Source of the DNA: a virus
Lineage: Duplodnaviria; Heunggongvirae; Uroviricota; Caudoviricetes
Length of the DNA stretch: 64,000 nt
IMG/VR virus record: IMGVR_UViG_2974578326_000001
Location: 26,711 to 90,710 of that record
Strand: one strand, 5' to 3'
How positions within the stretch are numbered: position 1 is the first letter of the stretch; every line of letters begins with the position of its first letter. Under the pieces are notes generated by a model, which saw only the letters and a list, made by a program, of their open reading frames with translations, did not search any database and was not told where the DNA came from. The position numbers were made by a program, and so were the translations under genes. Shown piece after piece: positions 516 to 61,273 of the stretch.

Positions 516-548
516 CTTATATTATGTGCAATAATTATTTGTAGTTTT
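516..548 (-). promoter_or_regulatory. copy 1 of conserved ~33-bp promoter/operator-like motif containing palindrome ATTATGTGCAATAAT
   Basis: near-identical to 10714-10748, 52212-52234 and reverse-complement at 61237-61273. Confidence 0.45.
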
Positions 549-566
549 TTCATACAAATTGTATAA

Positions 567-1112
567 TTATTCATCATTTCCTAAGTTCATCATAACATTT
601 CTATCAATTGTTGTGAACTTTGTTGGTTCTTCATTATGAGAAAATATAAGAAACATACTACCTTTATTATTACCATTAACAGGAACCTGAGTGTCTGCTC
701 TAACAAATGATATCCTTCCTCCGGTAACAAACATAACTTCAGAGACGTTTAATTCCAAAGCTCTATTAAACCAACCCACTGAGGTGTCGGCAGGAACTAG
801 CATCACAGTAGTTACACCTTTAGTAGATTCCGCATGGGCTTTCTCAATCCAAGGTCTTATGTCAGAGTATGGAGGGTTTAACCATACAGATTCTTCATTA
901 ACGTTTATCTCAGAAGACCAATCTTGCTCTAAAGAGTTATCGTTTACAGTGAAATATCGTGAACATAGGTGATTTAAGTTACTTGCTGCTGCATCTAGTG
1001 TAAAATTATAACCTAATTCATATTTCATGTAATTAAAAATTGATCTTGGTGTCTGCCATAAATCTCTTATGTTTACAGGTGTTGTACTTTCATATAAATA
1101 ATCTTGTGACAT
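567..1112 (-). CDS. phage-type DNA N6-adenine methyltransferase (Dam-like)
   Basis: 181 aa with catalytic NPPY motif (WLNPPYS), size typical of short phage Dam family. Confidence 0.6.
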   Translation of the reverse strand: MSQDYLYESTTPVNIRDLWQTPRSIFNYMKYELGYNFTLDAAASNLNHLCSRYFTVNDNSLEQDWSSEINVNEESVWLNPPYSDIRPWIEKAHAESTKGVTTVMLVPADTSVGWFNRALELNVSEVMFVTGGRISFVRADTQVPVNGNNKGSMFLIFSHNEEPTKFTTIDRNVMMNLGNDE

Positions 1113-1120
1113 AAATATCC

Positions 1121-1291
1121 TTAGAACGGTAAGTCTTTAATTTCTTTATCAATTTCTGGTTTATACTTCTTAATTAAAGCATCACCACAATCTTTACAGA
1201 AGTTAAAACCCTCAGTCAGAGGGTCTTTTATTAAGAAAATTTTTTCACATACTTTACATTGACATTCATAGCCATCTTTAACCTTTTTCAC
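1121..1291 (-). CDS. putative small zinc-ribbon protein (GTG start, 56 aa), not in ORF track
   Basis: CQCKVC ... CKDC spacing typical of Zn ribbon; AAGGGG SD 7 nt upstream of GTG; fills gap between dam and next gene. Confidence 0.3.
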   Translation of the reverse strand: MKKVKDGYECQCKVCEKIFLIKDPLTEGFNFCKDCGDALIKKYKPEIDKEIKDLPF

Positions 1292-1559
1292 CGAATAACC
1301 CCTTAATCATTTGTTCAAATTCTTCACCTTTTTCGTACACCTGTTCAGCTTCAATCATTGCATAGTGTACAACTTTAAGTAGATCTTGAAGTCCATTTTT
1401 AGTTTTGTGCCTAAAGGAATATTTTATCATATTCATCTGGTTCCAGTCAAGTTGTGGGTTCTTATGAAAAAATTCAATTGGTTGAATACCATCAACTTTG
1501 TAATGACTTCCACCAACCATAGTATTTAGTGCTGTTCTTTTCTCACCTGACATAATCAT
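1278..1559 (-). CDS. hypothetical protein with GGSHY motif (reminiscent of phage DUF3310-type proteins)
   Basis: 93 aa; motif MVGGSHYKV. Confidence 0.35.
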   Translation of the reverse strand: MIMSGEKRTALNTMVGGSHYKVDGIQPIEFFHKNPQLDWNQMNMIKYSFRHKTKNGLQDLLKVVHYAMIEAEQVYEKGEEFEQMIKGLFGEKG

Positions 1560-1614
1560 CTCCTGCTTGCTGCATAAAATAAATAAAGTATTAAGAATAA
1601 TAAGATTAAGGATA

Positions 1615-2016
1615 TCATATTTTTACCCTCTTATAAACCATTTCATAATTAAAAGGTTTTGTTTCCCTGGTTATGCAAATAAAAGGTATTTTCAATTCTT
1701 TAGCCACTTGGTATAGCCATTTATAGCCACCAAACAGCCTAGAATCACCTGTAGACAGTGCTACAAGGACAGATAGACAATCACCCACGTGCATATCAAA
1801 CTCTCTATGAAATGCCATAGAAGCTGTTATTTTCCCATCCTCTGTTACAACATACTCCCACCTGTCTGTGTAAACAATTGTTCCACATAAATTAAAGAAA
1901 TACTCGTCAAAGTTTCTATGTTGGAATATTTTACAGGAGTCATATACAACTTTTGCAAAATCTTTGTCAAATCCATGAGTTGGTTCACCTTTTCTGCATA
2001 AATATTTTCTAATCAT
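1615..2016 (-). CDS. hypothetical protein
   Basis: 133-aa ORF tightly packed in operon. Confidence 0.4.
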   Translation of the reverse strand: MIRKYLCRKGEPTHGFDKDFAKVVYDSCKIFQHRNFDEYFFNLCGTIVYTDRWEYVVTEDGKITASMAFHREFDMHVGDCLSVLVALSTGDSRLFGGYKWLYQVAKELKIPFICITRETKPFNYEMVYKRVKI

Positions 2017-2261
2017 AGAGGTAATATGCCTCCATAAGTGTATGAAGGTACAACTGTAATACAGTCAGTGAATTTCTTTTCAAACAAACTTCTATTCATT
2101 GCCCATTTTGTACCAACAGGGTGTCCATCGTAAGACACCTCTAGGTTTATATAAATAATTAAGTCAATGGTACAATCATTACCCATCTTAGCAAAATCAA
2201 TAACTTGGACTAATGTCTTTCTATTTATTGACCTAAACTTACTGTTTATTGAGATTTCCAT
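2013..2261 (-). CDS. hypothetical protein
   Basis: 82-aa ORF, start overlaps nrdD end. Confidence 0.35.
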   Translation of the reverse strand: MEISINSKFRSINRKTLVQVIDFAKMGNDCTIDLIIYINLEVSYDGHPVGTKWAMNRSLFEKKFTDCITVVPSYTYGGILPL

Positions 2262-4083
2262 GTTTAACTCTTCCCATTACTTCATTCTGTTTACCTGGAT
2301 TGAAAGGTCTAGTTCCTGGGTTTCCTAGATATCCACAAACCCTTCTAGTAACCTCTAAGGAGTTTGGATCTGTGTTACCACAATGAGGACATTTAAAACC
2401 ATCTTCTGTTGCCAGAGACTCTCCCATGTAACCACATGCACTACATGTATCAATAGGTGTGTTTATACCAAAATAATGAACTTTAGAGTGTGCGTAATCA
2501 ATTACATATTCTAAGGCTTTTGGAAACTTCTTCATATCTGGCAGTTCTACGTATGAAATACAACCACCACTGGCAATTGGAGTAAAATTACTCTCATAGT
2601 CGAACTTAACATCTGGTGATACTTTACGATCCACACTTAGATGATGACTGTTTGTATAATAACCCTTCTCAAACAACCAACCAAATTTCTCTCCGAACTT
2701 TTCCTTATCTATTCTGTTAAATCTATCACAAAGTGATTCTGAAGGTGTTGCATAGAGACTAAAACCAATCCCAGTTTCTGATTTCTTCTTGTCTATTTCA
2801 TTTTTCATGAAGTTCAATACATCTTTTACGAAATCAATACAAACTTTATCCATTGTATCAACATCTTTACCAAACCAAGCTTGTAGCATTTCATGACAAC
2901 CAATATAACCCACTGATATTGAAGATCTGTTAATAAAATGATCAAATACATATTCTTCAGGTTTTAATCTTAGACCAAAAGCACCATGCATATATAAGAT
3001 TGGTGCTGATTTTGCTTGCACTTGTTTTAAGTGCTCTATACGCCAATCTAAAGCCTTGAATGAAATATCAATACGTTCCTTCAATATATTAAAGAATTCA
3101 TCTCTACTGTTAGCTTCCATAGCTATTCTTGGGAGATTAATACTAACAACACCTAAATTGTTTCTACCAGAAGTTTCACCACTGTCAATTGCTGATAAGA
3201 ATGATCTACAACCCATAGACACCTTATAATCACCAGTGACCTTAACAACCTCTTCATACGATATATAATCTGGATAAATTCTCTCAGATGTACATTTCAT
3301 AGCTAATTGTTTTATGTCATAATTAGGATCATCTGGTTTCAGGTTTAAACCTTCTTTTAATACAAATACAAGTTTTGGGAAAATAGCTGTTCTCCGACTT
3401 GCACCTAGACCTTTCATTCTAACTTCTAATATTGATTTCTGTACTAATCTAGACTCCCAAGAATCGCCAAGACCAAAACCAAAAGTAACAAAAGGAGATT
3501 GACCATTTGAATTAAAAAGTGTATTAACCTCGTACTCAAGACTTTGCATCGCATCATAGACCGCCTTTTCCGTCAACTGTGTGGCAACTACAGCAGCTTT
3601 AGCTTCATTGTTATCTAGCACACGCTTTAATAGAGAAAACCATTTGTCGTACGTTTTACGAACATATGGAGCAAGTACTTCATCTAATCTATCAATAGAT
3701 GTACCACCATATTGATGACTAGATACTTGTGCTATAATTTGGGCAGTTACAGCAACTGCTGTACTTACTGATTTTGGTGTCTCAATCTCTGCATTACCGA
3801 TAACTGTTCCATTATCTAACATACCTTTTAAATCAACTAGGCAACAATTAGTAAAACCTTGAGCGGAATAATCCGTGTCATGGAAATGAATAGCACCACT
3901 ATTATGTGCTTCCCATATATCTTTTGGTAATAAATCTTTTAAAAGAAGTTTTGAAACTTCTCCAGCCATCATATCCCTTTGTGTTGGAAACCTTTCTGAT
4001 GGTTTATTGGCATTATTATGTAATAATGTTTTATCTGCACTTCCATTTAAAATCCCTTTAATTTTATTTAAGAATTCTTCCAT
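2239..4083 (-). CDS. nrdD: anaerobic ribonucleoside-triphosphate reductase (class III RNR), T4-like, no ATP-cone
   Basis: 614 aa; N-terminus collinear with T4 NrdD (NANK..RFPTQRDMMAG); C-terminal CxxC..CxxC zinc site and glycyl-radical motif RVCGYLG. Confidence 0.9.
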   Translation of the reverse strand: MEEFLNKIKGILNGSADKTLLHNNANKPSERFPTQRDMMAGEVSKLLLKDLLPKDIWEAHNSGAIHFHDTDYSAQGFTNCCLVDLKGMLDNGTVIGNAEIETPKSVSTAVAVTAQIIAQVSSHQYGGTSIDRLDEVLAPYVRKTYDKWFSLLKRVLDNNEAKAAVVATQLTEKAVYDAMQSLEYEVNTLFNSNGQSPFVTFGFGLGDSWESRLVQKSILEVRMKGLGASRRTAIFPKLVFVLKEGLNLKPDDPNYDIKQLAMKCTSERIYPDYISYEEVVKVTGDYKVSMGCRSFLSAIDSGETSGRNNLGVVSINLPRIAMEANSRDEFFNILKERIDISFKALDWRIEHLKQVQAKSAPILYMHGAFGLRLKPEEYVFDHFINRSSISVGYIGCHEMLQAWFGKDVDTMDKVCIDFVKDVLNFMKNEIDKKKSETGIGFSLYATPSESLCDRFNRIDKEKFGEKFGWLFEKGYYTNSHHLSVDRKVSPDVKFDYESNFTPIASGGCISYVELPDMKKFPKALEYVIDYAHSKVHYFGINTPIDTCSACGYMGESLATEDGFKCPHCGNTDPNSLEVTRRVCGYLGNPGTRPFNPGKQNEVMGRVKHGNLNKQ

Positions 4084-4097
4084 GATTTCCTCTTTAA

Positions 4098-4502
4098 TTA
4101 AAGATAAGTTGAGTCAATATCAATATTTGTTTTTGTAGAATCTTCTTTTATGGTCACTAAGATTACGGGGATCTCATTCCTGACTAGGTAATTATACATA
4201 TGAAGACTTCCTTTAGAAACACCATCCCATAGTATTACACCCATATCAGCGTATTTACCCATCTCTGCATTCCTAATATAACCAGCACTTTTACCATATT
4301 GATCCCAGTCTGGTTTAAATACAGTTAATTTGATTTCATTCTCTTCTGCTAAAAGTTCTCCAAATCTATCTGCACCCCTAGCATTTCCTGATACAATTTC
4401 TGTTGTATTTTTAAGTATATTGTGATCTTTGTTTACAAGATTAAACATTTTACTAAGTTGTGAGAATTTTAAATCTCTGCTTCCTGCAATGATAACTTTC
4501 AT
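4098..4502 (-). CDS. SLOG-superfamily (DUF2493/YpsA-like) nucleotide-binding protein
   Basis: IIAGSRD ... SGNARGAD Rossmann-like motifs as in DprA/LOG/DUF2493. Confidence 0.4.
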   Translation of the reverse strand: MKVIIAGSRDLKFSQLSKMFNLVNKDHNILKNTTEIVSGNARGADRFGELLAEENEIKLTVFKPDWDQYGKSAGYIRNAEMGKYADMGVILWDGVSKGSLHMYNYLVRNEIPVILVTIKEDSTKTNIDIDSTYL

Positions 4503-5125
4503 TATTTATTTCTCCATTCAAACCAACCAATAAAACTATTGACTAAGAATACAACACGCATAACTGCTATAGCTAATACTTCAGGAACTAGTGATGCAGC
4601 TGTAAACCACATAATAACTTCTATAGTATTGCATGGTATCCAGTAGTACCACTGTTTCTTTGTATCAGACATTAATAACAGAGTTGATGTTATTATTAAT
4701 GCACCACTAAGAACATCATGAACAGGCATTGTAGATCCAGTATAAAGCATTATATTTGTATATATTATAGCTAAAGTCGAGAATATTACTAAATGATATT
4801 TGTTTATGTTATTAGTTATTGTTTTCCCAATTAGATCCTTACCCTTCCATTGAAAATAAGCTATAATTTGCAATGGTGCGAGTATAAAAGTATTCACTAT
4901 CATATTTATTATGAAACCAGCTTCATAAGACATATACCCTAGTAGAACACACAGTATAAAACCTAATAGGTTACAAGCTGGAATCCTAAAAGCAACACCA
5001 ATAACAAATAGTACTCCAACTAATGAGGTTATTGTTGTTAATAGACTCGCACCTGAGACAACGCATGCCCCTAATATAAGAGAAGGGGCAACAAAGCCCC
5101 AAACTGATTTTAAATGTTTTACCAT
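4502..5125 (-). CDS. PnuC-like nicotinamide riboside transporter (membrane protein)
   Basis: 7 predicted TM segments; conserved Trp/Asn motifs (AYFQWKG, KQWYYWIPCNTIEV, IGWFEW) resembling PnuC; start moved to MVKHLK to avoid overlap. Confidence 0.45.
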   Translation of the reverse strand: MVKHLKSVWGFVAPSLILGACVVSGASLLTTITSLVGVLFVIGVAFRIPACNLLGFILCVLLGYMSYEAGFIINMIVNTFILAPLQIIAYFQWKGKDLIGKTITNNINKYHLVIFSTLAIIYTNIMLYTGSTMPVHDVLSGALIITSTLLLMSDTKKQWYYWIPCNTIEVIMWFTAASLVPEVLAIAVMRVVFLVNSFIGWFEWRNK

Positions 5126-5138
5126 ATAACTCCTTGGA

Positions 5139-5699
5139 TTAGAAAGGTTCTGCCGTACCAATAGCTTCACGTAAGTCTTCTTGTTCAGTGAAACCTTTTC
5201 CATTAGTTAATTGTAAAACAGTTCCATATACATACTGATTAATACCTAATGAGCGCCTATCTTCTGACTCTGTGATGCCTTTAACACGTCGAATGTCACC
5301 GTAGTGTGCGATCACTTCTTTATCTAGTATTTTATCTGTCAATTTCTTAATAATTCTTAACTTATGGTCACTATCAATGTCATCATCTTTTAAAACTACA
5401 TCAATTAATAATGACAAATCTTTCATACCTTTAATCTGCCCAAGCTCAACATGTGTACCAAGAGCTTCTGGTAATGGTTCAATAAGAATTGTATCAGCCC
5501 ACATAATTGCATCAGTGTCATGTTTAACAATACGTTCCGCTAAACCCTCCTGTACCGCATTCTTTTTATCATTAATCTCTTTATTATCCATAGGGTTGTA
5601 TAATTCATGTCCAAGTTGGTGAATCATTTCTTTTTCTTGATTTCTCTGTAATTGTGACCCAACTGTTAAACAATGTCCTGCAATGTAAACTTTTTTCAT
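5139..5699 (-). CDS. nucleoside 2-deoxyribosyltransferase-like (SLOG/Rossmann) protein
   Basis: N-terminal KVYIAGH glycine-rich strand and downstream acidic residues as in NDT/Rcl family. Confidence 0.4.
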   Translation of the reverse strand: MKKVYIAGHCLTVGSQLQRNQEKEMIHQLGHELYNPMDNKEINDKKNAVQEGLAERIVKHDTDAIMWADTILIEPLPEALGTHVELGQIKGMKDLSLLIDVVLKDDDIDSDHKLRIIKKLTDKILDKEVIAHYGDIRRVKGITESEDRRSLGINQYVYGTVLQLTNGKGFTEQEDLREAIGTAEPF

Positions 5700-5983
5700 T
5701 ATTTATTCCTTAAACTATCCAGTGAAAAGGTTGTATTATCGATAATAATATCACTAATATCGAGTGGAGAATGTTTAGTATACTTAGTATCACCTCTTCC
5801 ATAATATTTTGCTCCTGGGCACACATGAAGCCCTTTTATACCACAAACAGGACAAGATCCTTCTTGGATTTTATTCATCCTAATTAAGTGTTTTAGTCTA
5901 GAAATAACAAAATCAGGAACAACATCTCGATCCATGTTTTCTGATGTTTTGACTATTCGATCTAACTCTTCGTAGATACCCAT
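5699..5983 (-). CDS. hypothetical Cys-containing protein
   Basis: 94 aa; CPVCG ... CPG. Confidence 0.35.
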   Translation of the reverse strand: MGIYEELDRIVKTSENMDRDVVPDFVISRLKHLIRMNKIQEGSCPVCGIKGLHVCPGAKYYGRGDTKYTKHSPLDISDIIIDNTTFSLDSLRNK

Positions 5984-6183
5984 TATTTCCCCTTAAAAAT
6001 CTTTTTAATTCTTTTATAAATAACAAAAGACCAGAATAAAGGCCAAGATAAACTAATAATAGCAGAACCAAGAACAATTTCGTTCCATGGGTATTTTTTA
6101 AATGTTTTCTCATTTCTCTCAATATAAAATGCAATAGAGAGCATAAATGCTGTAAGTAAACAAAAACTAAAATAAATAATCAT
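5983..6183 (-). CDS. small membrane protein
   Basis: 66 aa with two hydrophobic helices. Confidence 0.35.
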   Translation of the reverse strand: MIIYFSFCLLTAFMLSIAFYIERNEKTFKKYPWNEIVLGSAIISLSWPLFWSFVIYKRIKKIFKGK

Positions 6184-7337
6184 TCTGTTGGTTCTCCATT
6201 TTTATCACAAGTACGAACATACAATCCTACAGGAAACTGAGGCAACCCTTCTTCGGTTAATGTTTGATATGAATATGTAATCCATTTACCAATCAATTCT
6301 TTTTGATTATCAACTAACCTCTCTTCATGGGTTCCTTTCATCTTACATTTAAAAATCTTCTTAGAATCAGGCATTTCACATGATAATACACCTTCTCCAT
6401 TCTTATCTTCAGAGACACTTAAAACTAACGCTTCAGCATCTTTCATTAGTTTCCATTTCTGTAAGTCTGGTGATCTGTTGTTAAAAGTATATAAACCATC
6501 TATATTTCTGAGTATAAGTCCTTCATATCCCTTTTTAATAAAAGTATCTAATAAGAATGAAGCACTTTCTTTATCATTCACAAGAATATTGTCAACAACT
6601 TGAATTGATCCAAGTCTTTTACAACTATCCTGTACTTTCTTTAACATGTTACTAAATCTTTGTTCCCATTTAACACCTTCCACTGGTATATCAAATATAT
6701 GGAATTCTAATGAAATAGTATCTTGATTATGTTTTTTAACACATGATATGATATTTTGTAAAGGCATACCATGAATGTACAATTCACCATCAAATTTATC
6801 AATGTTTGTTTTAATATACAACTCAACTAAATCTCTTTTTATATGGTCTGGGCATTCATAATCCTTACCACCACGACTAGTTAGTTTTACTGTATACTCT
6901 TTATCAACCAAGTGAATACTTGCAATACAACGAACACCATCAAGCTTAGTGCTAACATAACATGGAAATTTAATCCTATGTTCGTTTTGTAGAAAGTTTT
7001 GAGCAAGCATAGGTAGTAATTGACCGACTTCCTTTGCTTCTTCTTTAGTCCAACGATAGCATTTATCGATTTGTTTATTGATCTTACTCTCTGCCTCAAG
7101 CAAAGCCTGCTCTTCTGGGGTTGTTTCATTAGATTTACCTATATTTTTAGGCTTACATATGGTATCCTTGTAAACCATTTTACCACCTAATCTACCATGC
7201 CCTACAGTAATAGTATCACCATTTACAGAAATTGTCCAGTGTTTAAAATTACCATTCTTATCGAGTGAGAAAAGTTCTTTGAACATTAAGATATCCTTAT
7301 ATCTATTTAAGGTAAAATAAAAGGCGTAGAAATCCAC
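6180..7337 (-). CDS. ATP-dependent DNA ligase
   Basis: 385 aa; adenylation motif I KLDG (YVSTKLDGVRC); size and layout like T7 gp1.3. Confidence 0.85.
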   Translation of the reverse strand: MDFYAFYFTLNRYKDILMFKELFSLDKNGNFKHWTISVNGDTITVGHGRLGGKMVYKDTICKPKNIGKSNETTPEEQALLEAESKINKQIDKCYRWTKEEAKEVGQLLPMLAQNFLQNEHRIKFPCYVSTKLDGVRCIASIHLVDKEYTVKLTSRGGKDYECPDHIKRDLVELYIKTNIDKFDGELYIHGMPLQNIISCVKKHNQDTISLEFHIFDIPVEGVKWEQRFSNMLKKVQDSCKRLGSIQVVDNILVNDKESASFLLDTFIKKGYEGLILRNIDGLYTFNNRSPDLQKWKLMKDAEALVLSVSEDKNGEGVLSCEMPDSKKIFKCKMKGTHEERLVDNQKELIGKWITYSYQTLTEEGLPQFPVGLYVRTCDKNGEPTE

Positions 7338-7351
7338 GCCCTTTTAGATAA

Positions 7352-7783: not shown

Positions 7784-8582
7784 AATTTATCCAATCCCAA
7801 GAAAATAAATCATCTTCATACTGTCCAATATAAAGAAGCCTAGCATTTTCCAGCATTATATCTTCATAGGATTCATTGTCTTCATTAAATCTCTTTTTAT
7901 ATTCTTCTTCAACTACGTTGAACATGTCTTTGACTGTTTCACAGCTCTCTAAAAGTTTTATGGCAGTCTTCTCGCCAATTCCTTTTCTTCGTAGTTGTAA
8001 CTTACCACCCCACATGACTTCTTCTCTTTTACCACAACCTAGTATATTATCAGTATTATCACCTGTTAACATTTGTTGGAAGAAGAATCTACGAGCCTCA
8101 TACTCGCTTATCCAGTGTGGCATCTGTTTGGGTTGTCTTTCACCACAAGCAAATCTATAGTGCCAACCCATAACAGTTTTTAAATCTTTATCTCTAGAAC
8201 AGATTACGGTGTTTTCCATATCCGCTCTTTGTTCTATACCCATCCAATCATCAGCTTCAGCACCAACTACAACAATACTTGGGTATTTTCTCATTATATA
8301 ATCACCAACCGTATTGTAATGGTATGGTTTTTCAACAGAATCCCTGTTCCCTTTATAAGGAGCTTGTTTAGCTATATTGAATCGGAAATTACCATTACCA
8401 GTGAAACCACACACAAATTCATCTGATTTAGTATCCCTGAGAATTTCATCTATAAGATCATCAACCAATATGTGTATTTCTTCAACTGGAGCTGGTATAA
8501 ATTCCTTTTCCAAAAAGGGATGTCTTATTTGAACTGATCCAATCTGATAACGTAGAATATCTGCGTCAATAAGAGCTTTCAT
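7626..8582 (-). CDS. 5'-3' exonuclease / flap endonuclease (T7 gp6 / T4 RNase H class)
   Basis: N-terminal acidic PIN-like site (LIDADIL), helix-3-turn-helix GIGEKTAIKLL. Confidence 0.8.
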   Translation of the reverse strand: MKALIDADILRYQIGSVQIRHPFLEKEFIPAPVEEIHILVDDLIDEILRDTKSDEFVCGFTGNGNFRFNIAKQAPYKGNRDSVEKPYHYNTVGDYIMRKYPSIVVVGAEADDWMGIEQRADMENTVICSRDKDLKTVMGWHYRFACGERQPKQMPHWISEYEARRFFFQQMLTGDNTDNILGCGKREEVMWGGKLQLRRKGIGEKTAIKLLESCETVKDMFNVVEEEYKKRFNEDNESYEDIMLENARLLYIGQYEDDLFSWDWINYEVNKESNNDQTIRNDTYGNKRILPNESKPDYQSGSCSEPNTGICTPIPCFG

Positions 8583-8584
8583 TA

Positions 8585-8809: not shown

Positions 8810-9350
8810 AACGCTCTAAAGTAGAAACAAGAGAGTTTCTAATACGATGCAGTCTGACATACACAAAGTTCAAAGTTATACCGTGCTTCTTAGCCACTTC
8901 TTTAGTATCTGTATTCCTAAGATATATATCTGTAAATAATTCTTTATCATCATCTTTTAGTCTATTAAATGCCATTTGAATAAACTCAGATGATTCATTA
9001 TTTAAAATATCTCTAATTGGATCTGATATACCATCATCATGACTTTCAAAATCTAGTATATTATCATATAATTCTTTATCAGGTCTATCAAACTCTTTTC
9101 TAACATATCCATAACGGACATTATTAGCTATAGTACCGATAGCACCTGTTAGCTTATCCCACTGAATTCTGTCCCAATACAACCAAATCCTAAGTAAAGT
9201 TTCTTGGGCTAAATCTTCAGCTAAATGAAAATCTCTTTCAGTGAAATAAAATTGATCCCTAAGTGGTTTCCAATACTCTAAATATAGTTCATCAAAAGAG
9301 TATCTACCTTTTTTCTTTGGTTCTGGAGCTATAACCCTCTTCGCCATCAT
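8784..9350 (-). CDS. ECF-type sigma factor-like protein
   Basis: region-2-like AEDLAQETLLRIWLYW and region-4-like HTH GITLNFVYVRLHRIRNSL. Confidence 0.55.
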   Translation of the reverse strand: MMAKRVIAPEPKKKGRYSFDELYLEYWKPLRDQFYFTERDFHLAEDLAQETLLRIWLYWDRIQWDKLTGAIGTIANNVRYGYVRKEFDRPDKELYDNILDFESHDDGISDPIRDILNNESSEFIQMAFNRLKDDDKELFTDIYLRNTDTKEVAKKHGITLNFVYVRLHRIRNSLVSTLERYDISFDAE

Positions 9351-27993: not shown

Positions 27994-30267
27994 TTAAATT
28001 TTACAAGCCCCACTTTCACAATCTGAATCTAAATCTTCCTGAGAATCTTCAGCTCCATCTCTTGTGTTTTGATAGTATAGAGTCTTGAGTCCAAACTTAT
28101 AAGCCATCAATAAATCTTTCAACAACTGATTCATTGGAACTTTATCATCTTGGAATCGTTTAGGATCATAATTAGTATTAGCTGAAATTGCTTGGTCAAC
28201 AAACTTCTGCATAATACCAACAAGTTGTAAATAGCCACTATTATTTGGGATACTCCATAATAATTCATAGTTATCTTTAAGTTTGTCAAACTCTGGAACA
28301 ACTTGTTTTAAGATTCCGTCTTTAGAAGTTTTAACACTAACAAAACCTCTAGGAGGCTCAATACCATTAGTGGCATTTGAAATCTGAGAAGATGTTTCTG
28401 ATGGCATCAACGCTGTTAATGTGGAGTTTCTTAATCCATTCTCAACAATATCTTTTCTTAAGGTTTCCCAGTCCATGTGAAGTTTTTCAGTCACAATGGA
28501 ATCAATATCTTTTTTATAAGTATCAATTGGAAGAATACCTTTTGAATAGGTTGTCTCGTTGAATAATTCACAAGCACCAAACTCTTTTGCTAATTTATTA
28601 GAAGCCTTCAATAAATAATACTGTATTGCTTCAAATGTTCGGTGAGTCAAGTTATTTGCACTACCATCAGAGTACTTAACTCCATTCTTAGCCAAATAAT
28701 ACGCAAAGTTAATAACACCTACACCTAAAGTTCTTCGTCTCTTAGAAGATAACTCAGCTGCAATGATTGGATAGTTTTGATAATCTAATAGAGAATCAAG
28801 ACCACGGACAATCAACTCAGACAAGTATTCTAATTCTTCGAGATTTTCGATTTTACCAAGATTGAAAGCAGACAAAGTACACAATGCAATCTCACCATCT
28901 TCATCTTTTAAATCTTTCATTGGCTTAGTTGGAAGTGCAATCTCTAAACATAAGTTTGACTGCTTAATAGGAGCTACTTCTGAATCAAATGGACTATGTG
29001 TATTACAGTGGTCAACATTCTGAATGTAGATACGGCCTGTTGAAGCCCTTTCTTGCATCAGGGTTGAGAATAAATCTACAGCTCTAACAACTTTCTTCCT
29101 AATACTATCATCATTTTCATATTGATGGTATAAGGCTTCGAATTGTTTCTGATTACTGAAGAATGATTCATAGAGTCCAGGTACATCAGAAGGACTGAAC
29201 AATGTGATATTACCATTTTGGATTAAACGATTATAAAGTGTTTTATTAATTTGAACACCATAATCTAAATGTCTAACCCTGTTCTCCTCTACACCTCTGT
29301 TATTTCGTAACACGAGTAAGCTTTCGGCTTCTAAATGCCAGAGAGGATAGAATAATGTAGCAGCACCACCACGTACTCCACCTTGTGAACAAGATTTTAC
29401 TGCTGTTTGGAAATGTTTGTAGAAAGGTATAACACCTGTATGGAAAGCTTCCCCTCCTCTGATACGACTTCCAAGAGCACGAATTGCTCCAGCATTAATA
29501 CCTATTCCAGCTCGCTGTGATACATATTTGATAATAGCATTAGATGCAGAGTTAATCTCATCTAAACTATCACCAGCTTCAATCAATACACAAGAGCTAA
29601 ACTGACGTGTTGGAGTCCTTACACCAGCCATGATAGGTGTTGGTAATGATAGTTTAAAAGTGGAAGTTGCATCATAGAAATCTCGAATAAGTTTCATTCT
29701 CTTTTCTCCACTATATTTGGAGAATAGACAAGCTGCAACTAGCATATACAAGAATTGAGCACTCTCATAAATATCACCACTAACACGATCCTGTACAAGA
29801 TATTTACCTTCCAACTGTTTAACAGCTGCGTAAGCAAAGTCTAAATCTCGGTCATGATCAATGAAATCATCCATCATGTTAATCTCATTCTCAGAGTAAT
29901 CCTCAAGAATGTGAGCATCATATTTACCCATTCCTACTAATTTTTTAATATGATCATAAAGTTTAGGTGGTTTATAGCCTCCATAAGCTTTCTTTCTCAG
30001 ATTAAAAATAGATAAACGAGCTGCAAGATATTGGTAATCAGGAGACTCTTCACTAATTAAATCTGCTGCACTCTTTATAAGTGTTTCATGGATATCTGAG
30101 GTCTTCATGTTTGGTGCAAACTGAATCTGTGCCCTTAATTCTACCTGAGACACAGATACATTATTTAAACCCTCTGAAGCCCATGTTACTACTTTGTGAA
30201 TCTTTTCCAGATCCAGAGGCTCTTGACTTCCATCACGTTTAGTAACTAACATTCCTTGTTGTTCCAT
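27994..30267 (-). CDS. nrdA: ribonucleotide reductase class Ia large subunit (alpha) with N-terminal ATP-cone
   Basis: 757 aa; ATP-cone VTKRDGSQEPLDLEKI, catalytic NLCLEIALPT, C-terminal CESGAC redox tail. Confidence 0.95.
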   Translation of the reverse strand: MEQQGMLVTKRDGSQEPLDLEKIHKVVTWASEGLNNVSVSQVELRAQIQFAPNMKTSDIHETLIKSAADLISEESPDYQYLAARLSIFNLRKKAYGGYKPPKLYDHIKKLVGMGKYDAHILEDYSENEINMMDDFIDHDRDLDFAYAAVKQLEGKYLVQDRVSGDIYESAQFLYMLVAACLFSKYSGEKRMKLIRDFYDATSTFKLSLPTPIMAGVRTPTRQFSSCVLIEAGDSLDEINSASNAIIKYVSQRAGIGINAGAIRALGSRIRGGEAFHTGVIPFYKHFQTAVKSCSQGGVRGGAATLFYPLWHLEAESLLVLRNNRGVEENRVRHLDYGVQINKTLYNRLIQNGNITLFSPSDVPGLYESFFSNQKQFEALYHQYENDDSIRKKVVRAVDLFSTLMQERASTGRIYIQNVDHCNTHSPFDSEVAPIKQSNLCLEIALPTKPMKDLKDEDGEIALCTLSAFNLGKIENLEELEYLSELIVRGLDSLLDYQNYPIIAAELSSKRRRTLGVGVINFAYYLAKNGVKYSDGSANNLTHRTFEAIQYYLLKASNKLAKEFGACELFNETTYSKGILPIDTYKKDIDSIVTEKLHMDWETLRKDIVENGLRNSTLTALMPSETSSQISNATNGIEPPRGFVSVKTSKDGILKQVVPEFDKLKDNYELLWSIPNNSGYLQLVGIMQKFVDQAISANTNYDPKRFQDDKVPMNQLLKDLLMAYKFGLKTLYYQNTRDGAEDSQEDLDSDCESGACKI

Positions 30268-30289
30268 TAATAATCTCCCTGATCAATTC

Positions 30290-30472
30290 TTATTTATCTA
30301 ATTTTTCAATCATCATGACTGCAGCTTTTGTAATGAATGCCTTTTTATGGCTTATTCCTTCTTCATCTTTTACATAGAACACAAATCCGCTACCCTCTTC
30401 CGCATAGAAACTCGCTTCAATTTCTATTGGATCTGCATTATTATAGAAACGTGTTATAACATATTTATTCAT
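30290..30472 (-). CDS. hypothetical protein
   Basis: 60-aa ORF. Confidence 0.3.
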   Translation of the reverse strand: MNKYVITRFYNNADPIEIEASFYAEEGSGFVFYVKDEEGISHKKAFITKAAVMMIEKLDK

Positions 30473-30474
30473 TT

Positions 30475-30915
30475 TTATTTAATCTCTTTAGTAATGTATA
30501 AGATTTCAGATGAACGAAAAACTGCAACGAAGTTCTTTTCGTCGTGCCTGTTATCTCCATTATAAAAATGAGTCCAAGTATCATCAGAGATAGATCTCTC
30601 TGCTTTTACTGACACTAGATCACCATTCTTTAAACCTACTTTGTATTTATATGTAATTGGCATATCTTCTCCTAATGGAATATTTATAATATCATTAATT
30701 GCGAAGTCCCTAGTTTTATTTTTATCTAAATCTAGAGCTGTTACAAAATACTGTTCACCTTTGTGATACTCTGTTTCACCTTTCCATATAGATCTTACCT
30801 CTATGTTTCTTAGTGAAGTAATACCTTTCCAGTTTTTATATAATATCTTTAATTTTTTATTAATGAAAGAGTTTAATATTTCTATTTTAACTCTATTATT
30901 CAAAGTGATACTCAT
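30475..30915 (-). CDS. hypothetical protein
   Basis: 146-aa ORF. Confidence 0.4.
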   Translation of the reverse strand: MSITLNNRVKIEILNSFINKKLKILYKNWKGITSLRNIEVRSIWKGETEYHKGEQYFVTALDLDKNKTRDFAINDIINIPLGEDMPITYKYKVGLKNGDLVSVKAERSISDDTWTHFYNGDNRHDEKNFVAVFRSSEILYITKEIK

Positions 30916-53010: not shown

Positions 53011-53012
53011 AG

Positions 53013-53539: not shown

Positions 53540-53618
53540 ATTAATTTCACCTTTAATTTAAATTAAGATTAGGAGTCGCTCAAGATCCCTCAAGCGACTT
53601 ATTAATGATTACAGAGGT

Positions 53619-54203: not shown

Positions 54204-54308
54204 ATATTAACTTCCTTATGAATGTTAAGGCATTATTGCCAGATAGAATGTTTTTACTACACAATAAAATATGTTAGGGGTCTTAAACTAACAACCCCTA
54301 AAGGTATT

Positions 54309-54617: not shown

Positions 54618-54670
54618 TAATATAAATGCTTAATAATAGAGCTACAGTAAATAGCCCTATGGTTAAGAAT

Positions 54671-55585: not shown

Positions 55586-55779
55586 TAGATAACCTTTTTA
55601 ATCATTTTAACTTCTGAGCAAGGGAATTCAGCAACAATTTCATCGCCTACAAGGAACACATATACACCCATCATTCGATGGTTGTGTGGGTTATCTCTCT
55701 TAATTGAAAGATATAAATCTGCTTCAACTTCAACACCTGAATTATCATTGTAACCCATTCTAACTTCATACTTATTCAT
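55585..55779 (-). CDS. hypothetical protein
   Basis: 64-aa ORF. Confidence 0.35.
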   Translation of the reverse strand: MNKYEVRMGYNDNSGVEVEADLYLSIKRDNPHNHRMMGVYVFLVGDEIVAEFPCSEVKMIKKVI

Positions 55780-55840
55780 TTTATAACCTCTAATAAGTAG
55801 TTTCGGTTTTAAAGAGATCCGAAAACTCTATCGATGGGTA

Positions 55841-56425
55841 TTAGAACCCTACCGCAAAGCCAGCACCAATCGCATGGTCTTGTTCTGAGTTATGACTAAA
55901 TGATAACCGAACAGCAGTTGACCGTGTAGGTTTGATTTGAGCACCAACAGCTACTGCATTTTCGCCATTATACCAACCACCACCAACACCAACACTGAAT
56001 GTATCACCATCAACATAAGGGATATTTGACATAGCTGCTACACCAGAAATACCAGCAGACATTTTCTTTTCGCTTGTACGCATCCACTTCTGAACATCAC
56101 CACGCAAAGCACCAACCTGATTATCGGTGTAAGCAATGCTGCTTGATGAAGTAGCGACTAATTGATCACCAAAGTATTGCTCTGTTTGGTGTAACTTATC
56201 GTCAGTGTACTTGTTAGAAACCTTAATGGCTTCACTTTTACGGACATCAGTGTATTCATTAGAGCGTTGTTCTGCATCTAATGTTTCTTGGTGACTTGTT
56301 AGATACAACTCATAAGCATGTGCCTGCTCATAGGAAAGATCAGGGTATTTTTCTTCCAATGTTTGGGCAAATGCAGTAGAGGCAAGTAATAAGCCAGATA
56401 CTAAGGCAACAATTTGTTTTTTCAT
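55841..56425 (-). CDS. secreted outer-membrane protein with YadA-like C-terminal beta-barrel anchor
   Basis: signal peptide MKKQIVALVSGLLLASTAFA; C-terminal Gly/Ala-rich strands ending with aromatic F. Confidence 0.45.
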   Translation of the reverse strand: MKKQIVALVSGLLLASTAFAQTLEEKYPDLSYEQAHAYELYLTSHQETLDAEQRSNEYTDVRKSEAIKVSNKYTDDKLHQTEQYFGDQLVATSSSSIAYTDNQVGALRGDVQKWMRTSEKKMSAGISGVAAMSNIPYVDGDTFSVGVGGGWYNGENAVAVGAQIKPTRSTAVRLSFSHNSEQDHAIGAGFAVGF

Positions 56426-56513
56426 TATTCATCTCTTAGGACAATGTGAATTAAAACGAACGATAGTAAAATAAAAGCTAAATCAGGACTCATAGCCCCT
56501 CCCTAGCACGACG

Positions 56514-56810
56514 TCACAGTAGTAAGTTTGATTTCTCACCACTATGTAACTTGATTTGCATACCTTTTAAGTTTTCAAAAGTATGTCGGATTGCACCATA
56601 CAACTTGTGCATGTTATTGTTTTTGGAATCAAATCGGAAGTTCTCAAGATACTTAACTTCTTTTTGTTTACCATAGAGTTTTACAGTTACTTGAAGGCAA
56701 TTACGTTTTGCTTTACGCTTGACATAAATTTTACCTACTATTTCAGGTAACTTGATAGATGTTTTCTTATCAAAATAAACATTGTTTACATTCAAAACGA
56801 CCATTGACAT
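56514..56810 (-). CDS. hypothetical basic protein
   Basis: 98-aa ORF. Confidence 0.35.
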   Translation of the reverse strand: MSMVVLNVNNVYFDKKTSIKLPEIVGKIYVKRKAKRNCLQVTVKLYGKQKEVKYLENFRFDSKNNNMHKLYGAIRHTFENLKGMQIKLHSGEKSNLLL

Positions 56811-56878
56811 TTTGATAACCTCTTATATGGTTTAATAAATATTAACTAGTCCTCTGCGTGAAGACTAGGTGATATTCA

Positions 56879-57112
56879 CTATCTTTTTATAACTAACTCA
56901 ACATCAATAGGTTTAACATTGTGACTGTTAAAGAAGTTAGTAATTTTGAATCCTGCTAACTCACTGATCCCTGAGTTTAATTGGATAGCTGATCCTTTGT
57001 TTATCTTACGGTAAATAGCACCGTCCTTGTTTTCAAAGCAATCACCTATACCAATACTTCCAAAAAGTATATACAAGTCTTCACAATTATCATCAATTAT
57101 TTTAAAAGACAT
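56879..57112 (-). CDS. small protein, GD-x-F family member
   Basis: FGSIGIGDCFENKDGAIYRKI pattern. Confidence 0.4.
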   Translation of the reverse strand: MSFKIIDDNCEDLYILFGSIGIGDCFENKDGAIYRKINKGSAIQLNSGISELAGFKITNFFNSHNVKPIDVELVIKR

Positions 57113-57113
57113 G

Positions 57114-57362
57114 TTAACCTCTATGATCGGATATTATTAACTCTACAAAAACAGGTCTGACTTTGAGATTTGGTTTTGGTTTTTCAAACTTAGTGTCTCC
57201 AAATCCAACTTTACTATTACTAATACATAAAGCAAGTGATTCAGTGTATTTTCTGTACACTAACCCACACTCTGTCATATAACAGTCATTAGGTGGTATG
57301 TCTTCAAACCTTACGAAAGGGCTTTTTGTTTTTGTTACTTTAAATGTCATTATTAACCTCAA
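57114..57362 (-). CDS. small protein, GD-x-F family member
   Basis: tandem with 56879-57112. Confidence 0.4.
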   Translation of the reverse strand: MRLIMTFKVTKTKSPFVRFEDIPPNDCYMTECGLVYRKYTESLALCISNSKVGFGDTKFEKPKPNLKVRPVFVELIISDHRG

Positions 57363-57540
57363 TACAACTGAAATTCATATCAGGGTTACGCCAGCGTGGC
57401 TCTACATCTTTCATCAATGTCTTACCAATATCTAGACAATCAGATTGTGATTGAGCTTGTACACGGACGGAGTTAGATGTCACTGATACACCGCTTGGGT
57501 CAGATACTGAGATAACCCAAACTAAAATAAAAATTTTCAC
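57340..57540 (-). CDS. small secreted protein
   Basis: signal peptide MKIFILVWVISVS, 2 Cys. Confidence 0.35.
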   Translation of the reverse strand: MKIFILVWVISVSDPSGVSVTSNSVRVQAQSQSDCLDIGKTLMKDVEPRWRNPDMNFSCIEVNNDI

Positions 57541-57563
57541 TATAATAACCTCACATTAGTGAT

Positions 57564-58112
57564 TTATTTTAACCCTCTCATTGCCTTGGTCATTTCAGCT
57601 AATCTTGAAGTTCGAGTTGCATCATTCTCAATTCTTCTTTCTTCTTCAATAGCCTTATCTTTTATTTCCTGTCTTACCATTTTAAGTGAAAGTTTTAAAA
57701 TCCTCTCTTTTGTTTTTAAATCAACTAAATCCGAGTGCATTAATGTATCAACATGGGCTTTGGCACAATTAGCGTTAGCTCTAACTAGACACACATTACC
57801 GCGCACATAACCTTTTAGGGGGTTTATACGTTCAATAGTTATATCAGGAGCATTTTTAAATTCTTCCCCAGAATAGGCGCAAAGACCATTGCCTTTATTA
57901 AAAAGATCATGTACATCTTTTAAGGTCAAATCAAACTCAACACCCTTTGAGCTAGCATTATTAATTTTATCTAGCATTTTTCTTAGAATAATATAAGGGC
58001 TTAGGCTTGTATATTTCATTGAAGATCCTTTAACTTCCTTGATTGTCATAGAATTTACTGAACATTGCAGTGATAGGGTGTATCTTTTCAGATTCTTTTC
58101 TTTTTCTATCAC
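57564..58112 (-). CDS. HNH-like nuclease domain protein with coiled-coil C-terminus
   Basis: GLCAYSGEEF..ITIERINPLKGYVRGNVCLV..N parallels the HNH motif of 18629-19207. Confidence 0.45.
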   Translation of the reverse strand: MIEKEKNLKRYTLSLQCSVNSMTIKEVKGSSMKYTSLSPYIILRKMLDKINNASSKGVEFDLTLKDVHDLFNKGNGLCAYSGEEFKNAPDITIERINPLKGYVRGNVCLVRANANCAKAHVDTLMHSDLVDLKTKERILKLSLKMVRQEIKDKAIEEERRIENDATRTSRLAEMTKAMRGLK

Positions 58113-58193
58113 GTTCCTCTTTCTCTGCTAATATTCTTTCACGTCTGTCTAATGCAGGTTCAGATAGACCGATTGTTACTATTTCTGGCGCAC

Positions 58194-58628
58194 TCATAAC
58201 GTTGTTAACTCACTTACTGAATAACCAATACCAAAATAAACAGCCTGGTTTAAAGAATGATCAGCGCATATTTTATCTACACCACAGCCATTCTCTTTAA
58301 TGAAGAATTCATAAGCTTTCTTAACACTTGGTCTAACACCAAAATTTTCATGATAGTCCATACCTAGTACAAGAGAATCAATATAATCTTCGGATACAGT
58401 GTTGATACAATCAATCATTGTTTGATCAGAAGGCATTGGTTTATTCTTTGCAAAAGCTTTACAGATGTTTGTTGCATCTTTTTCAATAGAATTTAAAGTT
58501 TGTTGTGTTTCTGGTAAATATTTAGATCGATCTAAGTCTAAAAACTTATCAGAAGCCAATACTGGATGGCATGCGGAAAGCGTCACCGTAGTGACAATTG
58601 CAATAGCTACTGCTCTTAAAGGCTTCAT
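58194..58628 (-). CDS. lipoprotein
   Basis: signal peptide with lipobox LSAC. Confidence 0.55.
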   Translation of the reverse strand: MKPLRAVAIAIVTTVTLSACHPVLASDKFLDLDRSKYLPETQQTLNSIEKDATNICKAFAKNKPMPSDQTMIDCINTVSEDYIDSLVLGMDYHENFGVRPSVKKAYEFFIKENGCGVDKICADHSLNQAVYFGIGYSVSELTTL

Positions 58629-58798
58629 CTTTTACCCCATTTATTTTCATTAGCTTTATTCGTTACCAACTTCTTATAAATAGTTGGCTCTCTATCTGGG
58701 TGACGTTTGGTATTTTCATACAAGTAAGATTGTTCAAAAGCTTTCTTTCTCACTTTCATGATAGCTTTTTTCAAAGCTTGTCCTCTCAACCTTTCCAT
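58625..58798 (-). CDS. small basic protein (57 aa, not in ORF track)
   Basis: ATG at 58798; stop overlaps lipoprotein start (ATGA). Confidence 0.25.
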   Translation of the reverse strand: MERLRGQALKKAIMKVRKKAFEQSYLYENTKRHPDREPTIYKKLVTNKANENKWGKR

Positions 58799-59075
58799 TT
58801 TTCACCTTATGATAATACATTAATAAACCATTAGCTTATTAATATACAATCAGGAAAACCCTCACACAATTTTATGCAAGGGTTTTCAGTTCCTCAATTA
58901 TCATATACTCAAATTAATTAGATAATATCTGAAAATATTTCCTATCCGTCTAACCTATTCTAGAATAGTTGTTTGTGTTAAACGCCTAACAAAGATTTAT
59001 TTTTATACTTTGTTTCTAAGGTTTTGATAGTTAGTAAAGCCTTTCAAACTTTACCTACCGCATGGGAATTACTCC

Positions 59076-59459
59076 TTAAAACTCTACCTTATAGCAGATT
59101 AAAGACATATTAACATCTGTTGCAATTTTATTACCATCTTCAAACAAAGTAACAACACTGTCTTTGATGATCGCATCATAGATATGACCGAGTTTTAAAC
59201 CTTTGTAAGACCACATAGGATTAACAGCGGATAGTTTAAAGCTAAATTTTCCATTGGTATTGATACCAGTGTCTTTTAACCATGATAAGACGGATTTCAG
59301 ATCATCATCTAAATCATAAGATTTTCCAAAGCGACACAGTAGTGTGCAAGCTCCGTCAGGGTGAACATGGATATGGTCTACATCTTCAACCATAAAGCAT
59401 GTATTGTTGTCTTTGATTTCTATTTCTTGGTTAGTTAAATCTACGCTGTTTATATTCAC
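59076..59459 (-). CDS. hypothetical protein
   Basis: 127-aa ORF. Confidence 0.4.
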   Translation of the reverse strand: MNINSVDLTNQEIEIKDNNTCFMVEDVDHIHVHPDGACTLLCRFGKSYDLDDDLKSVLSWLKDTGINTNGKFSFKLSAVNPMWSYKGLKLGHIYDAIIKDSVVTLFEDGNKIATDVNMSLICYKVEF

Positions 59460-59631
59460 TGCATATTCCTCATATGGTTTATGAATTATAATGATAGGAT
59501 TCTTATTTGAAAAGTTTTGGCTGTTAAGAAGAGGAATCCTATGGTTATAATCACACTGGAAAGGTTAAGGGTAAACCCGTATGACTATTAAGAGGCACTC
59601 AATGAATGCCCCTATTTTAGTTACACGGCTG

Positions 59632-60231
59632 TTATGCTTCTTGAGTATATTTAGCCTCAAGTGCTTTGATAGCTTCGGCTTTCTCGGCTTCGAGTGCTTC
59701 GGCTCGTGCTACATCTAACACTAGGTTAATTGCATCACGCATTTCTTGAGACAATGAAGCATTTTCTTTCTCTAACTTTTTAGTTAAAGTTGAAGTTAAA
59801 GTATTGTTCAACCATACAGCAGGGATAAATGCTTTCTTCTCTTTCTCTTCTTTTTCTGGAACAAAGTCCATGAATTCAGTTGATAAGCACTCACGCCCTA
59901 AGTCGCTGTCTAAGAAGTTAACATCTGGTTTATTCTTAGCCACTTTTACAGTGAAGTTGATAACCTTACCGACTTTTTCTTGAGAAATTTTTACAGGTGC
60001 AAATTTCTTTAAGAAAGCCAGCATTGCTTTTTGTTCAGTGCCACCATCTTTAGCCATTTTTAAGATTGGCTCGATGAAAGTGCAGTCACCATGTTGATGA
60101 GTGTGAACGATAGCAGACACTAACAGTAAGTTAGTTTGAGCTTGAGCCTCTTTACGTGATGCAGAAAGAGTTGCGATAGCATTTTGAATGTTAGCTTGAC
60201 CAAAGATTAAGTTAGTTACTTGAATAGCCAT
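59632..60231 (-). CDS. hypothetical protein with Ala/Glu-rich C-terminal coiled coil
   Basis: 199-aa ORF, second gene of leftward operon. Confidence 0.4.
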   Translation of the reverse strand: MAIQVTNLIFGQANIQNAIATLSASRKEAQAQTNLLLVSAIVHTHQHGDCTFIEPILKMAKDGGTEQKAMLAFLKKFAPVKISQEKVGKVINFTVKVAKNKPDVNFLDSDLGRECLSTEFMDFVPEKEEKEKKAFIPAVWLNNTLTSTLTKKLEKENASLSQEMRDAINLVLDVARAEALEAEKAEAIKALEAKYTQEA

Positions 60232-60268
60232 GATATTTCACCTTTTATATACATTTAAGAAATTAGAA

Positions 60269-60595
60269 TTAACGTGCTGGATTGAATGACTTGCCTTTCT
60301 TAGACTCACGCCAATCATTCTTGTTCATTGTTGTTGCTCCGCCAGTTGTGGCGAAAGTCCTAGCGTAGATTTTACGCAAGTGGTTTTTAGCTTGGTTAAC
60401 CTGTAAAGTAGTGAATGGCTTTTCCCATTCCCCAGTTAACTCATTTAAGCTAGGTTTATTGTCGATAACCTCGTTTAAGTTTTTAACAACCTCATGACGA
60501 CGTAAAGCAATATCATTCATGAAATCAGGTTGTTCCTTTTGTAGTCTGGCTCTTCTGGCTATCATTTTGTTTAGCCTTTTAAAGTTTCTAGACAT
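60269..60595 (-). CDS. hypothetical basic protein (first gene of leftward operon)
   Basis: 108-aa ORF adjacent to the noncoding control region. Confidence 0.4.
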   Translation of the reverse strand: MSRNFKRLNKMIARRARLQKEQPDFMNDIALRRHEVVKNLNEVIDNKPSLNELTGEWEKPFTTLQVNQAKNHLRKIYARTFATTGGATTMNKNDWRESKKGKSFNPAR

Positions 60596-61236
60596 TACAT
60601 TTACACCTTTGTTAAATGACCTTTGACGGGCTAGGGATTCGATAGTATAAGTTAACTAGTAACCACTCTAACTAAATCCCTAGCTCAAAGCGTCACTTGC
60701 GCAGTGCTTGCAAGTTTAGCTTGATAGCGAGCAATCATGTATACGGATGCTCATACCCTGTTTTTATTGCTATCGTGTTTTTATAACCGCCCTATAATCT
60801 ACGGTTTCAGAACGTTGCATTGTCACCAATGTTATCAACTAAACTGATTTAGGCTTTTTCCCCCGTTTACGGCTGGGGACGCTTTCACCTGATACGCTCG
60901 ATCCGATTTGGCACGCTTTGGATCTCAACCTGCGATATGTTTTTATGGTCATTCATTACTCATTAGTTATAAACCACTTACATTTATAACCACTTTCACG
61001 GTTGCCAGACCCGACAAACGGTGCTTTGTTTGTCATAGCTTTTAACATTCCCGTACTCACCTACTCAAAAACGCTTGCAATCTACTTGAGAAGCATAAAA
61101 CCGATTTACAATGAGAGCTTTCGAGTGCAATCAGGGCGCTATCGAATCCCTTACTACTTGCCGACTATCTTATATTAAGTTAATCAGCTTGTCAACCCCT
61201 TTTATTATCGTCTACTATTTAAGCAGATTGTACAAT

Positions 61237-61273
61237 AAAACTACAAATCATTATTGCACATAATATATAAGGG
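61237..61273 (+). promoter_or_regulatory. copy 4 of conserved promoter/operator-like motif, opposite orientation
   Basis: aaaactacaaatcattattgcacataatatataaggg = reverse complement of copies 1-3. Confidence 0.45.

Follow-up and report, generated by a model that had tools for sequence, protein, structure and literature searches.

The bacteriophages phiEco32 and 7-11 are models for phage control of the host RNA polymerase. Promoters of the phiEco32 sigma factor gp36 read tAATGTAtA, with an AATG core at -14 to -11 (Pavlova et al. 2012, as cited in PMC8948821 and PMC12276001), and the mapped gp47 promoters of 7-11, which were also transcribed in vitro, follow the pattern GTAAtg-N16-aCTA (PMC8948821). 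Here we describe a short repeated element, hereafter the box, in a 64,000-nucleotide stretch of phage DNA (the window, whose coordinates carry the prefix w). Positions w52000-64000 are 100% identical to positions 78710-90710 of the record of Proteus phage Privateer (MT028297); the window is record 26711-90710, and a w coordinate equals the record coordinate minus 26710. This phage belongs to the family Grimontviridae and is a prolate podophage; its late and structural genes form a rightward cluster, and its early and middle genes run leftward over roughly 60 kb. Judged from sequence comparison, the box is a directional expression signal common to Grimontviridae that heads genes and operons in four genera, and we give about an even chance to its being an undescribed promoter-type signal of the family, read by the host RNA polymerase. 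No description of the box, and no occurrence of its core sequence in a phage context, was found in the literature searched; the published description of Privateer names the sigma factor and does not mention the repeat.

A first-pass annotation of the window had reported four near-identical copies of the element at the heads of genes or operons, and we indeed found all four where it placed them. The 14-mer TTATGTGCAATAAT occurs exactly at w522, 10722, 52218 and 61250. A 35-nt pattern, searched with up to 3 mismatches, matched at w514-548 (+), w10714-10748 (+) and w61237-61271 (-) and had no match in 100 shuffled sequences. Four copies are thus far above chance expectation. Near-identity held for the 14-nt core in every copy but not throughout the element, as copy 3 has just the gene-proximal ~26 nt and the A/T run of copy 1 is 2 nt shorter than in copies 2 and 4. 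The genome-wide motif search that the annotation had proposed yielded no fifth copy in Privateer (none in record 1-26710, the remaining genome) but located the box at gene heads in other genera, as described below. Read in gene sense, the Privateer element is AAAACTACAAATAATTATTGCACATAATATA(TA)AGG; copy 4 alone is on the plus strand, and the other three are on the minus strand and run in the direction of the genes.

Each copy has its own setting. Copy 1 (w514-548, minus; gene sense AAAAACTACAAATAATTATTGCACATAATATAAGGG) has the Dam methylase gene (gp028) on one side and gp027, 130 nt away, on the other, and heads the final leftward unit, which comprises gp027, a terminator, the endonuclease and the spanins. 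The end of the Dam gene holds, ~40 nt upstream of copy 1, a sigma70-like promoter whose -10 is extended (TTCACA-17-TG-TATGAT, 10/12; w589-617, minus). Copy 2 (w10714-10748, minus) directly precedes AAGG-N7-ATG of gp045, and so abuts the ribosome-binding site and start codon of the open reading frame (ORF) w10245-10706, as the annotation had noticed; gp044, a hairpin and the sigma gene follow downstream. Copy 3 (w52208-52234, minus; AAATTATTGCACATAATATAAGGAGG) consists of the gene-proximal part only and overlaps the polynucleotide kinase stop codon, the place of its distal half being taken by the end of that gene. Five nucleotides past its AAGGAGG begins an unannotated 21-codon hydrophobic ORF, MMYHFFLVIYLIILIIHWYES (w52139-52204, minus), whose stop codon overlaps the gp121 ATG (TAATG). 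The ribosome-binding site of this ORF is perfect, and its translation is coupled to that of gp121. The DNA past copy 1 (w~500-430) looks like a decayed version of the same ORF. Copy 4 (w61237-61273, plus) is in the early control region, aimed at the late genes, with no adjacent ORF and no credible ORF behind it. It was said to face the plus-strand genes, which is right as to orientation, but the first of them, gp147 (w63396), is ~2.1 kb away, with leftward sigma70-type early promoters in between.

We then compared six Privateervirus genomes (Privateer, vB_CsaP_009, 3H10_20, YP1, J3S and P59). Exactly four copies were present in every one of them, syntenic and with orientation kept, and the 14-nt core TTATTGCACATAAT was invariant in all 24 copies. 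None of the 56 core alignment columns varied, compared with 78 of 600 in the flanking 75 nt on either side (Fisher p = 9e-4). Copy 4 shows variation, indels included, in its A/T run and its AAGGG, so that the constraint there falls on the block and not on the downstream part. In IMG/VR, an 18-mer scan found only vB_CsaP_009 plus chance matches, scans with two 14-mers were dominated by chance single matches among the matches listed, and a search for relatives through the gp045 protein returned known genomes only.

Entry to other genera came from short-query BLAST, which gave multi-copy matches in phages that are otherwise barely alignable to each other. In GAP52 and A24 (Crifsvirus, 44% guanine plus cytosine) the box reads (g/a)TAATTATTGCACATTAT(a/t)ATAAGrG and is present in 6 and 5 copies, respectively; in the Aeromonas phage BUCT695 (Libingvirus) it reads TAATTAATCCACATAT…AAGGrA, in at least 5 copies. 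Phage 7-11 (Moazamivirus) initially appeared to be box-less; its variant, CAGT(A/T)AATCCACATAWWATAAGrG, differs in the 5' part and occurs in 5 copies, one of them split by the GenBank record ends. Five places in ECO319P1 are known by BLAST match only, their sequences not having been inspected, and no CACAT box was found in phiEco32 (Kuravirus). All copies share A-W-T-S-CACAT, followed by 5-8 A/T and then AAGRG, and column counts revealed no conserved sequence upstream of the block. The variants co-vary within a genome, with TTG in Privateervirus and Crifsvirus and ATC in Libingvirus and Moazamivirus. These data support the annotation's view of a multi-copy, constrained, orientation-matched signal at gene and operon heads.

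Direction and position are kept as well. Full boxes inside the leftward cluster are all co-oriented with the genes (3 in Privateer, 5 in GAP52, 4 in A24, 4 in 7-11 and 3 in BUCT695), and the start codon usually lies 16-18 nt past CACAT, where AAGRG is its ribosome-binding site. The position of copy 1 is orthologous to GAP52 30220, A24 29445, BUCT695 55126 and 7-11 30499, and the last leftward unit (PnuC/gp027-endonuclease-spanin) is headed by a box in all four genera. A box also precedes the gp045 homologue in GAP52 (37306), A24 (35822) and BUCT695 (44263), which with Privateer makes three genera, and another orthologous position is before the AEK82009/GAP52_071 homologue. The GAP52 and A24 boxes at 66646 and 64356 are followed by a small hydrophobic ORF comparable to Privateer w52139-52204. 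Furthermore, one full copy per genome sits at the early-region border, directed towards the late cluster, the equivalents of copy 4 being GAP52 76606+, A24 74478+, BUCT695 439- and 7-11 89899+ (the copy split across the record ends). Some GenBank records were opened at this early-region box, GAP52 ending 10 nt past it and 7-11 being cut inside it, which may reflect physical ends or convention; the A24 record begins and ends with the same 127 bp.

Two of these positions deserve closer attention. Behind the 7-11 box at 30499 there is no ORF; ~45 nt separate the box from a rho-independent terminator (GGGGAaattaaTCCCCTTTCTCTT). By its sequence this is a promoter-terminator layout, and the minus-strand segment 30499-30420 is a candidate for a ~75-nt small RNA or a relic leader. 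The segment (CTTACACTGTA) is related to the leader past Privateer copy 1. In GAP52 (30163-30716), a 343-bp endonuclease VII cassette lies between two boxes where A24 (29388-29560) has a single one; the cassette is inserted exactly at the box, which is duplicated on either side. A box on either side would be expected of cassettes that each bring a promoter of their own. The box may also be a portable junction at which gene cassettes insert with their own copy. The PeSL elements of T4-type phages are promoter-associated mobile cassettes, and there too promoter-containing repeats flank inserted genes, as with the GAP52 cassette; the box differs in having no stem-loop, and there is one clear cassette case here.

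The annotation had taken the inverted repeat ATTAT-N5-ATAAT as the core of the element and as a typical operator for a dimeric regulator. The wider comparison does not bear this out. The repeat is confined to Privateervirus; the corresponding sequence is ATTATTGCACATTAT in GAP52 and A24, where the change of CATAAT to CATTAT removes it, and AAATCCACATAT in 7-11 and BUCT695, where the left arm differs. For an operator of a dimeric repressor, the half-sites and spacing of such a repeat would have to be conserved. An asymmetric operator would not need the symmetry: the box could be a site for a phage or host protein, bound as a monomer or in one orientation, that represses or activates nearby transcription or translation starts, with the early-region copy acting as a roadblock or switch beside the early promoters. 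Such a site would suit the ~14-nt block, which is contiguous and invariant and changes in concert across the copies of a genome (TTG vs ATC), as well as the location of copy 4 among early promoters. It would also accommodate two core-only copies in BUCT695 (AATTAATCCACATA; minus strand, 8539-8553 and 8993-9007), which are antisense, lie near a TerC-like gene and have neither the A/T run nor AAGRG. The textbook consensus of the DnaA box is TTWTNCACA, and the block, TAWTSCACA, matches it at 8 of 9 positions. The likeness is one of sequence. All copies have A in place of T at position 2, and the conserved unit is directional and longer than a DnaA box. Besides the unconserved inverted repeat, an operator has no need of strict co-orientation with genes, or of a conserved A/T run and AAGRG where no ORF follows; no DNA-binding regulator was seen among the proteins examined, and the main early promoters of BUCT695 are placed beyond the early-region copy rather than across it. 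We regard an asymmetric operator as unlikely.

We next considered the known promoter classes. The annotation had pointed to sigma70-like hexamers, CTACAA-17-TATAAG. CTACAA is absent from copy 3 and from the other genera, and the spacing is 17 in copy 1 and 19 in copies 2 and 4; the comparison does not support this proposal. Column counts gave no conserved -35 hexamer upstream of the box. The A/T run past CACA(T) reads TATAAT, TAATAT, TATTAT or TATATA, the reading differing between copies and genera, with TATAAT in many GAP52 and 7-11 copies.

It had also been suggested that the box is recognised by the phage extracytoplasmic function (ECF)-like sigma factor, gp043 (w8784-9347, minus; 66% identity to 7-11 gp47, with Sigma70 r2/r4 scores below the Pfam cut-offs). 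This is probably wrong, as gp47-type promoters stand at other Privateer sites and the box does not have their elements at the right spacing. A GTAAtg-N16-aCTA scan recovered the published 7-11 sites, along with equivalents at the late genes of GAP52, A24 and Privateer. Those of Privateer include exact consensus matches upstream of gp147 (w63291-63316, plus), the type expected for the phage sigma, and upstream of the major capsid gene (record 5033-5058, plus), and a late-promoter-like GTAAGG-N16-ACTA lies upstream of the dCMP deaminase gene gp071 (w21218-21243, minus), a position equivalent to 7-11 P69. The Privateer record does not annotate its 7-11-type late promoter matches. No GTAAtg/aCTA pair was found within the box at a spacing of 15-17, and the two classes coexist in every genome, 7-11 included.

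The box and the gp47 promoters nevertheless have much in common, both being low-copy, conserved phage signals at operon heads in the same family, and at two places the box takes the position that a gp47 promoter has in 7-11. The 7-11 endonuclease-spanin unit is inverted and lies behind late promoter P28, and the gene 48-sigma unit lies behind P48 (promoters from Lavysh et al. 2022, PMC8948821); in Privateer, the box heads both units. A P48-type site is absent from the sigma locus of Privateer and BUCT695, where the box is one gene upstream, and the relatives checked that have no box at the P48 position (PKM.Lu.22.1 and pSal-SNUABM-01) have a P48-type site. The two signals differ in that their sequences are unrelated and that the gp47 promoters are bipartite, with -35 and -10 elements, whereas the box is a contiguous block followed by an A/T run and AAGRG.

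This exchange of positions speaks for the box being a second promoter class of gp043. The 5' part of the box, (G/A)TAATT or GTAAAT, resembles the GTAAtg -35 element, and the single-element phiEco32 gp36 promoters also start with TAAT. The likeness to the latter goes further: they too are single contiguous elements with no strong -35 consensus, at about six copies per genome, and phiEco32 P6 abuts AGGAG-N6-ATG much as the box abuts its start codons. However, the box reads TAATTAWTS, without the AATG core and the G that gp36 needs (requirement from PMC12276001), this G at -11 being absent, and the Grimontviridae sigma is of the gp47 type, gp043 being 66% identical to gp47. Moreover, each of the four genera retains bipartite GTAAtg-N16-aCTA sites at its late genes, and the box has neither aCTA at 16 nt nor GTAA 16 nt upstream of CACA. 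It is very unlikely, in our view, that gp043 reads the box as a second class.

No single-subunit phage RNA polymerase is annotated in Privateer, GAP52, A24, 7-11 or BUCT695, an observation on annotations to which no independent profile search of the ORFs was added. Promoters of T7-like single-subunit phage RNA polymerases are conserved over about 23 bp through the start site. The box resembles them in its long block, A/T melting stretch and purine-rich start (…CACTATA-GGGAGA vs …CACATWWWW-AAGRG), and in having near-identical copies within a genome and a sequence that differs between genera. The A/T run of the box varies in length, a variation that T7-type promoters are not known to tolerate. 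Because no phage polymerase is annotated, recognition would fall to the host RNA polymerase, and because the box shows neither plain sigma70 contacts nor the mapped phage-sigma promoter type, an additional factor or an unusual recognition mode is implied. By-eye comparison with the consensus sequences of host sigma factors and regulators (sigma54, sigmaE, sigma28, CRP, Fur, IHF, MotA box, marbox, P1 C1 operator and PvdS IS box) found none that fits the positions kept across genera, and was not relied on.

The near-constant distance to the start codon, with the ribosome-binding site inside the conserved unit, would also suit an element that acts at the RNA level, that is, a site for a translational regulator or a processing nuclease upstream of the ribosome-binding site on read-through transcripts. 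In one variant of this explanation, the antisense copy in the early leader would pair in trans with the sense copies and mask their ribosome-binding sites; the early-region copy is indeed antisense to early-promoter transcripts in Privateer, GAP52 and 7-11 (in 7-11 by its annotation), which would make that leader complementary to the other copies. Conserved copies that have no nearby ORF (copies 1 and 4, GAP52 76606 and 7-11 30499) are not accounted for in this way. There is no stable conserved structure, and Rfam covariance models run on the window returned four tRNAs only, with no match at the box. The AAGGG of copy 4 drifts by indels in Privateervirus without matching change in the sense copies, and the consensus early promoters of BUCT695 do not transcribe the antisense copy. 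We consider an RNA-level element quite unlikely.

A phage-specific promoter class, as the annotation had also offered, is the best reading of the box, although we would put it no higher than evenly balanced. Its conservation, orientation and position and its lack of known consensus elements are observed; we infer a transcription start at the box, its temporal class and a factor that recognises it. In the proposed mechanism, the box would be a phage-specific promoter with a built-in short leader. Its parts would be a recognition block of ~14 nt with A-W-T-S-CACAT at its end, then 5-8 A/T positions, and then the purines AAGRG, which would double as the ribosome-binding site where a gene directly follows. 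Within the leftward cluster it would re-initiate transcription before gp045-gp044-sigma, before the small ORF, gp121 and the nucleotide and nicotinamide adenine dinucleotide genes, and before gp027-endonuclease-spanins. The copy at the early border would send transcription rightward, across the non-coding, repeat-rich region, to the late genes. Where transcription would start depends on which part is contacted. If the block itself is the -10 equivalent, the leader would be 15-20 nt long and include the ribosome-binding site. Among copies without an adjacent ATG, 5 of 7 fold AAGRG into a hairpin at the predicted 5' end, a statistically weak tendency in favour of a promoter, with z about -2.2 in two of them.

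Several points weigh against a promoter. If the A/T run is the -10 element, a start 6-8 nt past it would place the ribosome-binding site outside the mRNA. Precisely this tight geometry is that of phiEco32 P6, a mapped sigma-dependent promoter (TAATGTAGA-AGGAG-N6-ATG), which speaks for the promoter reading. A sigma70 consensus scan gave no gene-sense call at any of the four Privateer copies, and no conserved -35-like element is found at the box across copies. The antisense core-only copies of BUCT695 fit a protein-binding site better than a promoter. The transcription study of 7-11 reported no over-represented motif and no middle promoters, the box sites not having been probed there (PMC8948821). 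Finally, a phyletic search for a cognate recognition factor gave none. Proteins present in box-bearing phages and seemingly missing in 7-11 (the TraR/DksA-like gp124, gp140 and gp141) had been candidates, a selection that became void once the 7-11 box variant was found; gp140 has few homologues, a weak helical-repeat resemblance and no DNA-binding signature. As for gp124 (w53013-53273, minus), it has a TraR/DksA-type C4 zinc finger (Pfam PF01258) and is 100% identical in the six Privateervirus genomes, which differ by ~5-10%. Close homologues of it occur across T4-like and jumbo phages, a TraR-like protein being common in unrelated phages. We propose only tentatively, and as a doubtful possibility, the fuller version in which the box is the missing middle or delayed promoter class, read by the host RNA polymerase through a new phage factor or an unusual recognition mode, with one copy firing against the early promoters, through repeat-rich non-coding DNA that may be an origin or packaging region and onward to the late genes, and with the box also acting as a recombination joint for cassettes.

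The early control region around copy 4 contains further signals. A cluster of near-consensus sigma70-type early promoters runs leftward (w61167-62222, minus) and forms a class distinct from the box, with examples such as TTGACA-17-TATAAT at w61774-61746 and TTGACA-18-TATACT at w61458-61429. Six of these promoters stand in tandem on the minus strand of w61100-62300, and several have CAAGTAGTAA 6 nt past the -10. Five of the six minus-strand CAAGTAG words of the genome fall in the same interval, which suggests a common start or leader of early transcripts. CAAGTAG was also seen behind the BUCT695 box at 233, spaced as after the Privateer early -10 hexamers, and was set aside as a single case of a common word. 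The non-coding interval between copy 4 and the late promoter (w62440-63260) holds short direct repeat families, with five TATGACCTGCCATC-like repeats at w62937-63249 and five ACTATGG(G/A)AT/CCATAGT repeats at w62453-62919. These repeats are iteron-like and could mark an origin or packaging region.

The published scheme of 7-11 comprises sigma70 early and gp47 late promoters only, with no other motif (PMC8948821). If the box is indeed a promoter-type signal, a family-wide third signal at the sigma operon, the lysis and endonuclease unit and the early-late junction would revise this scheme, and it would point to a new specificity factor. The box would also offer compact, portable expression signals, and it marks unannotated small genes or RNAs.

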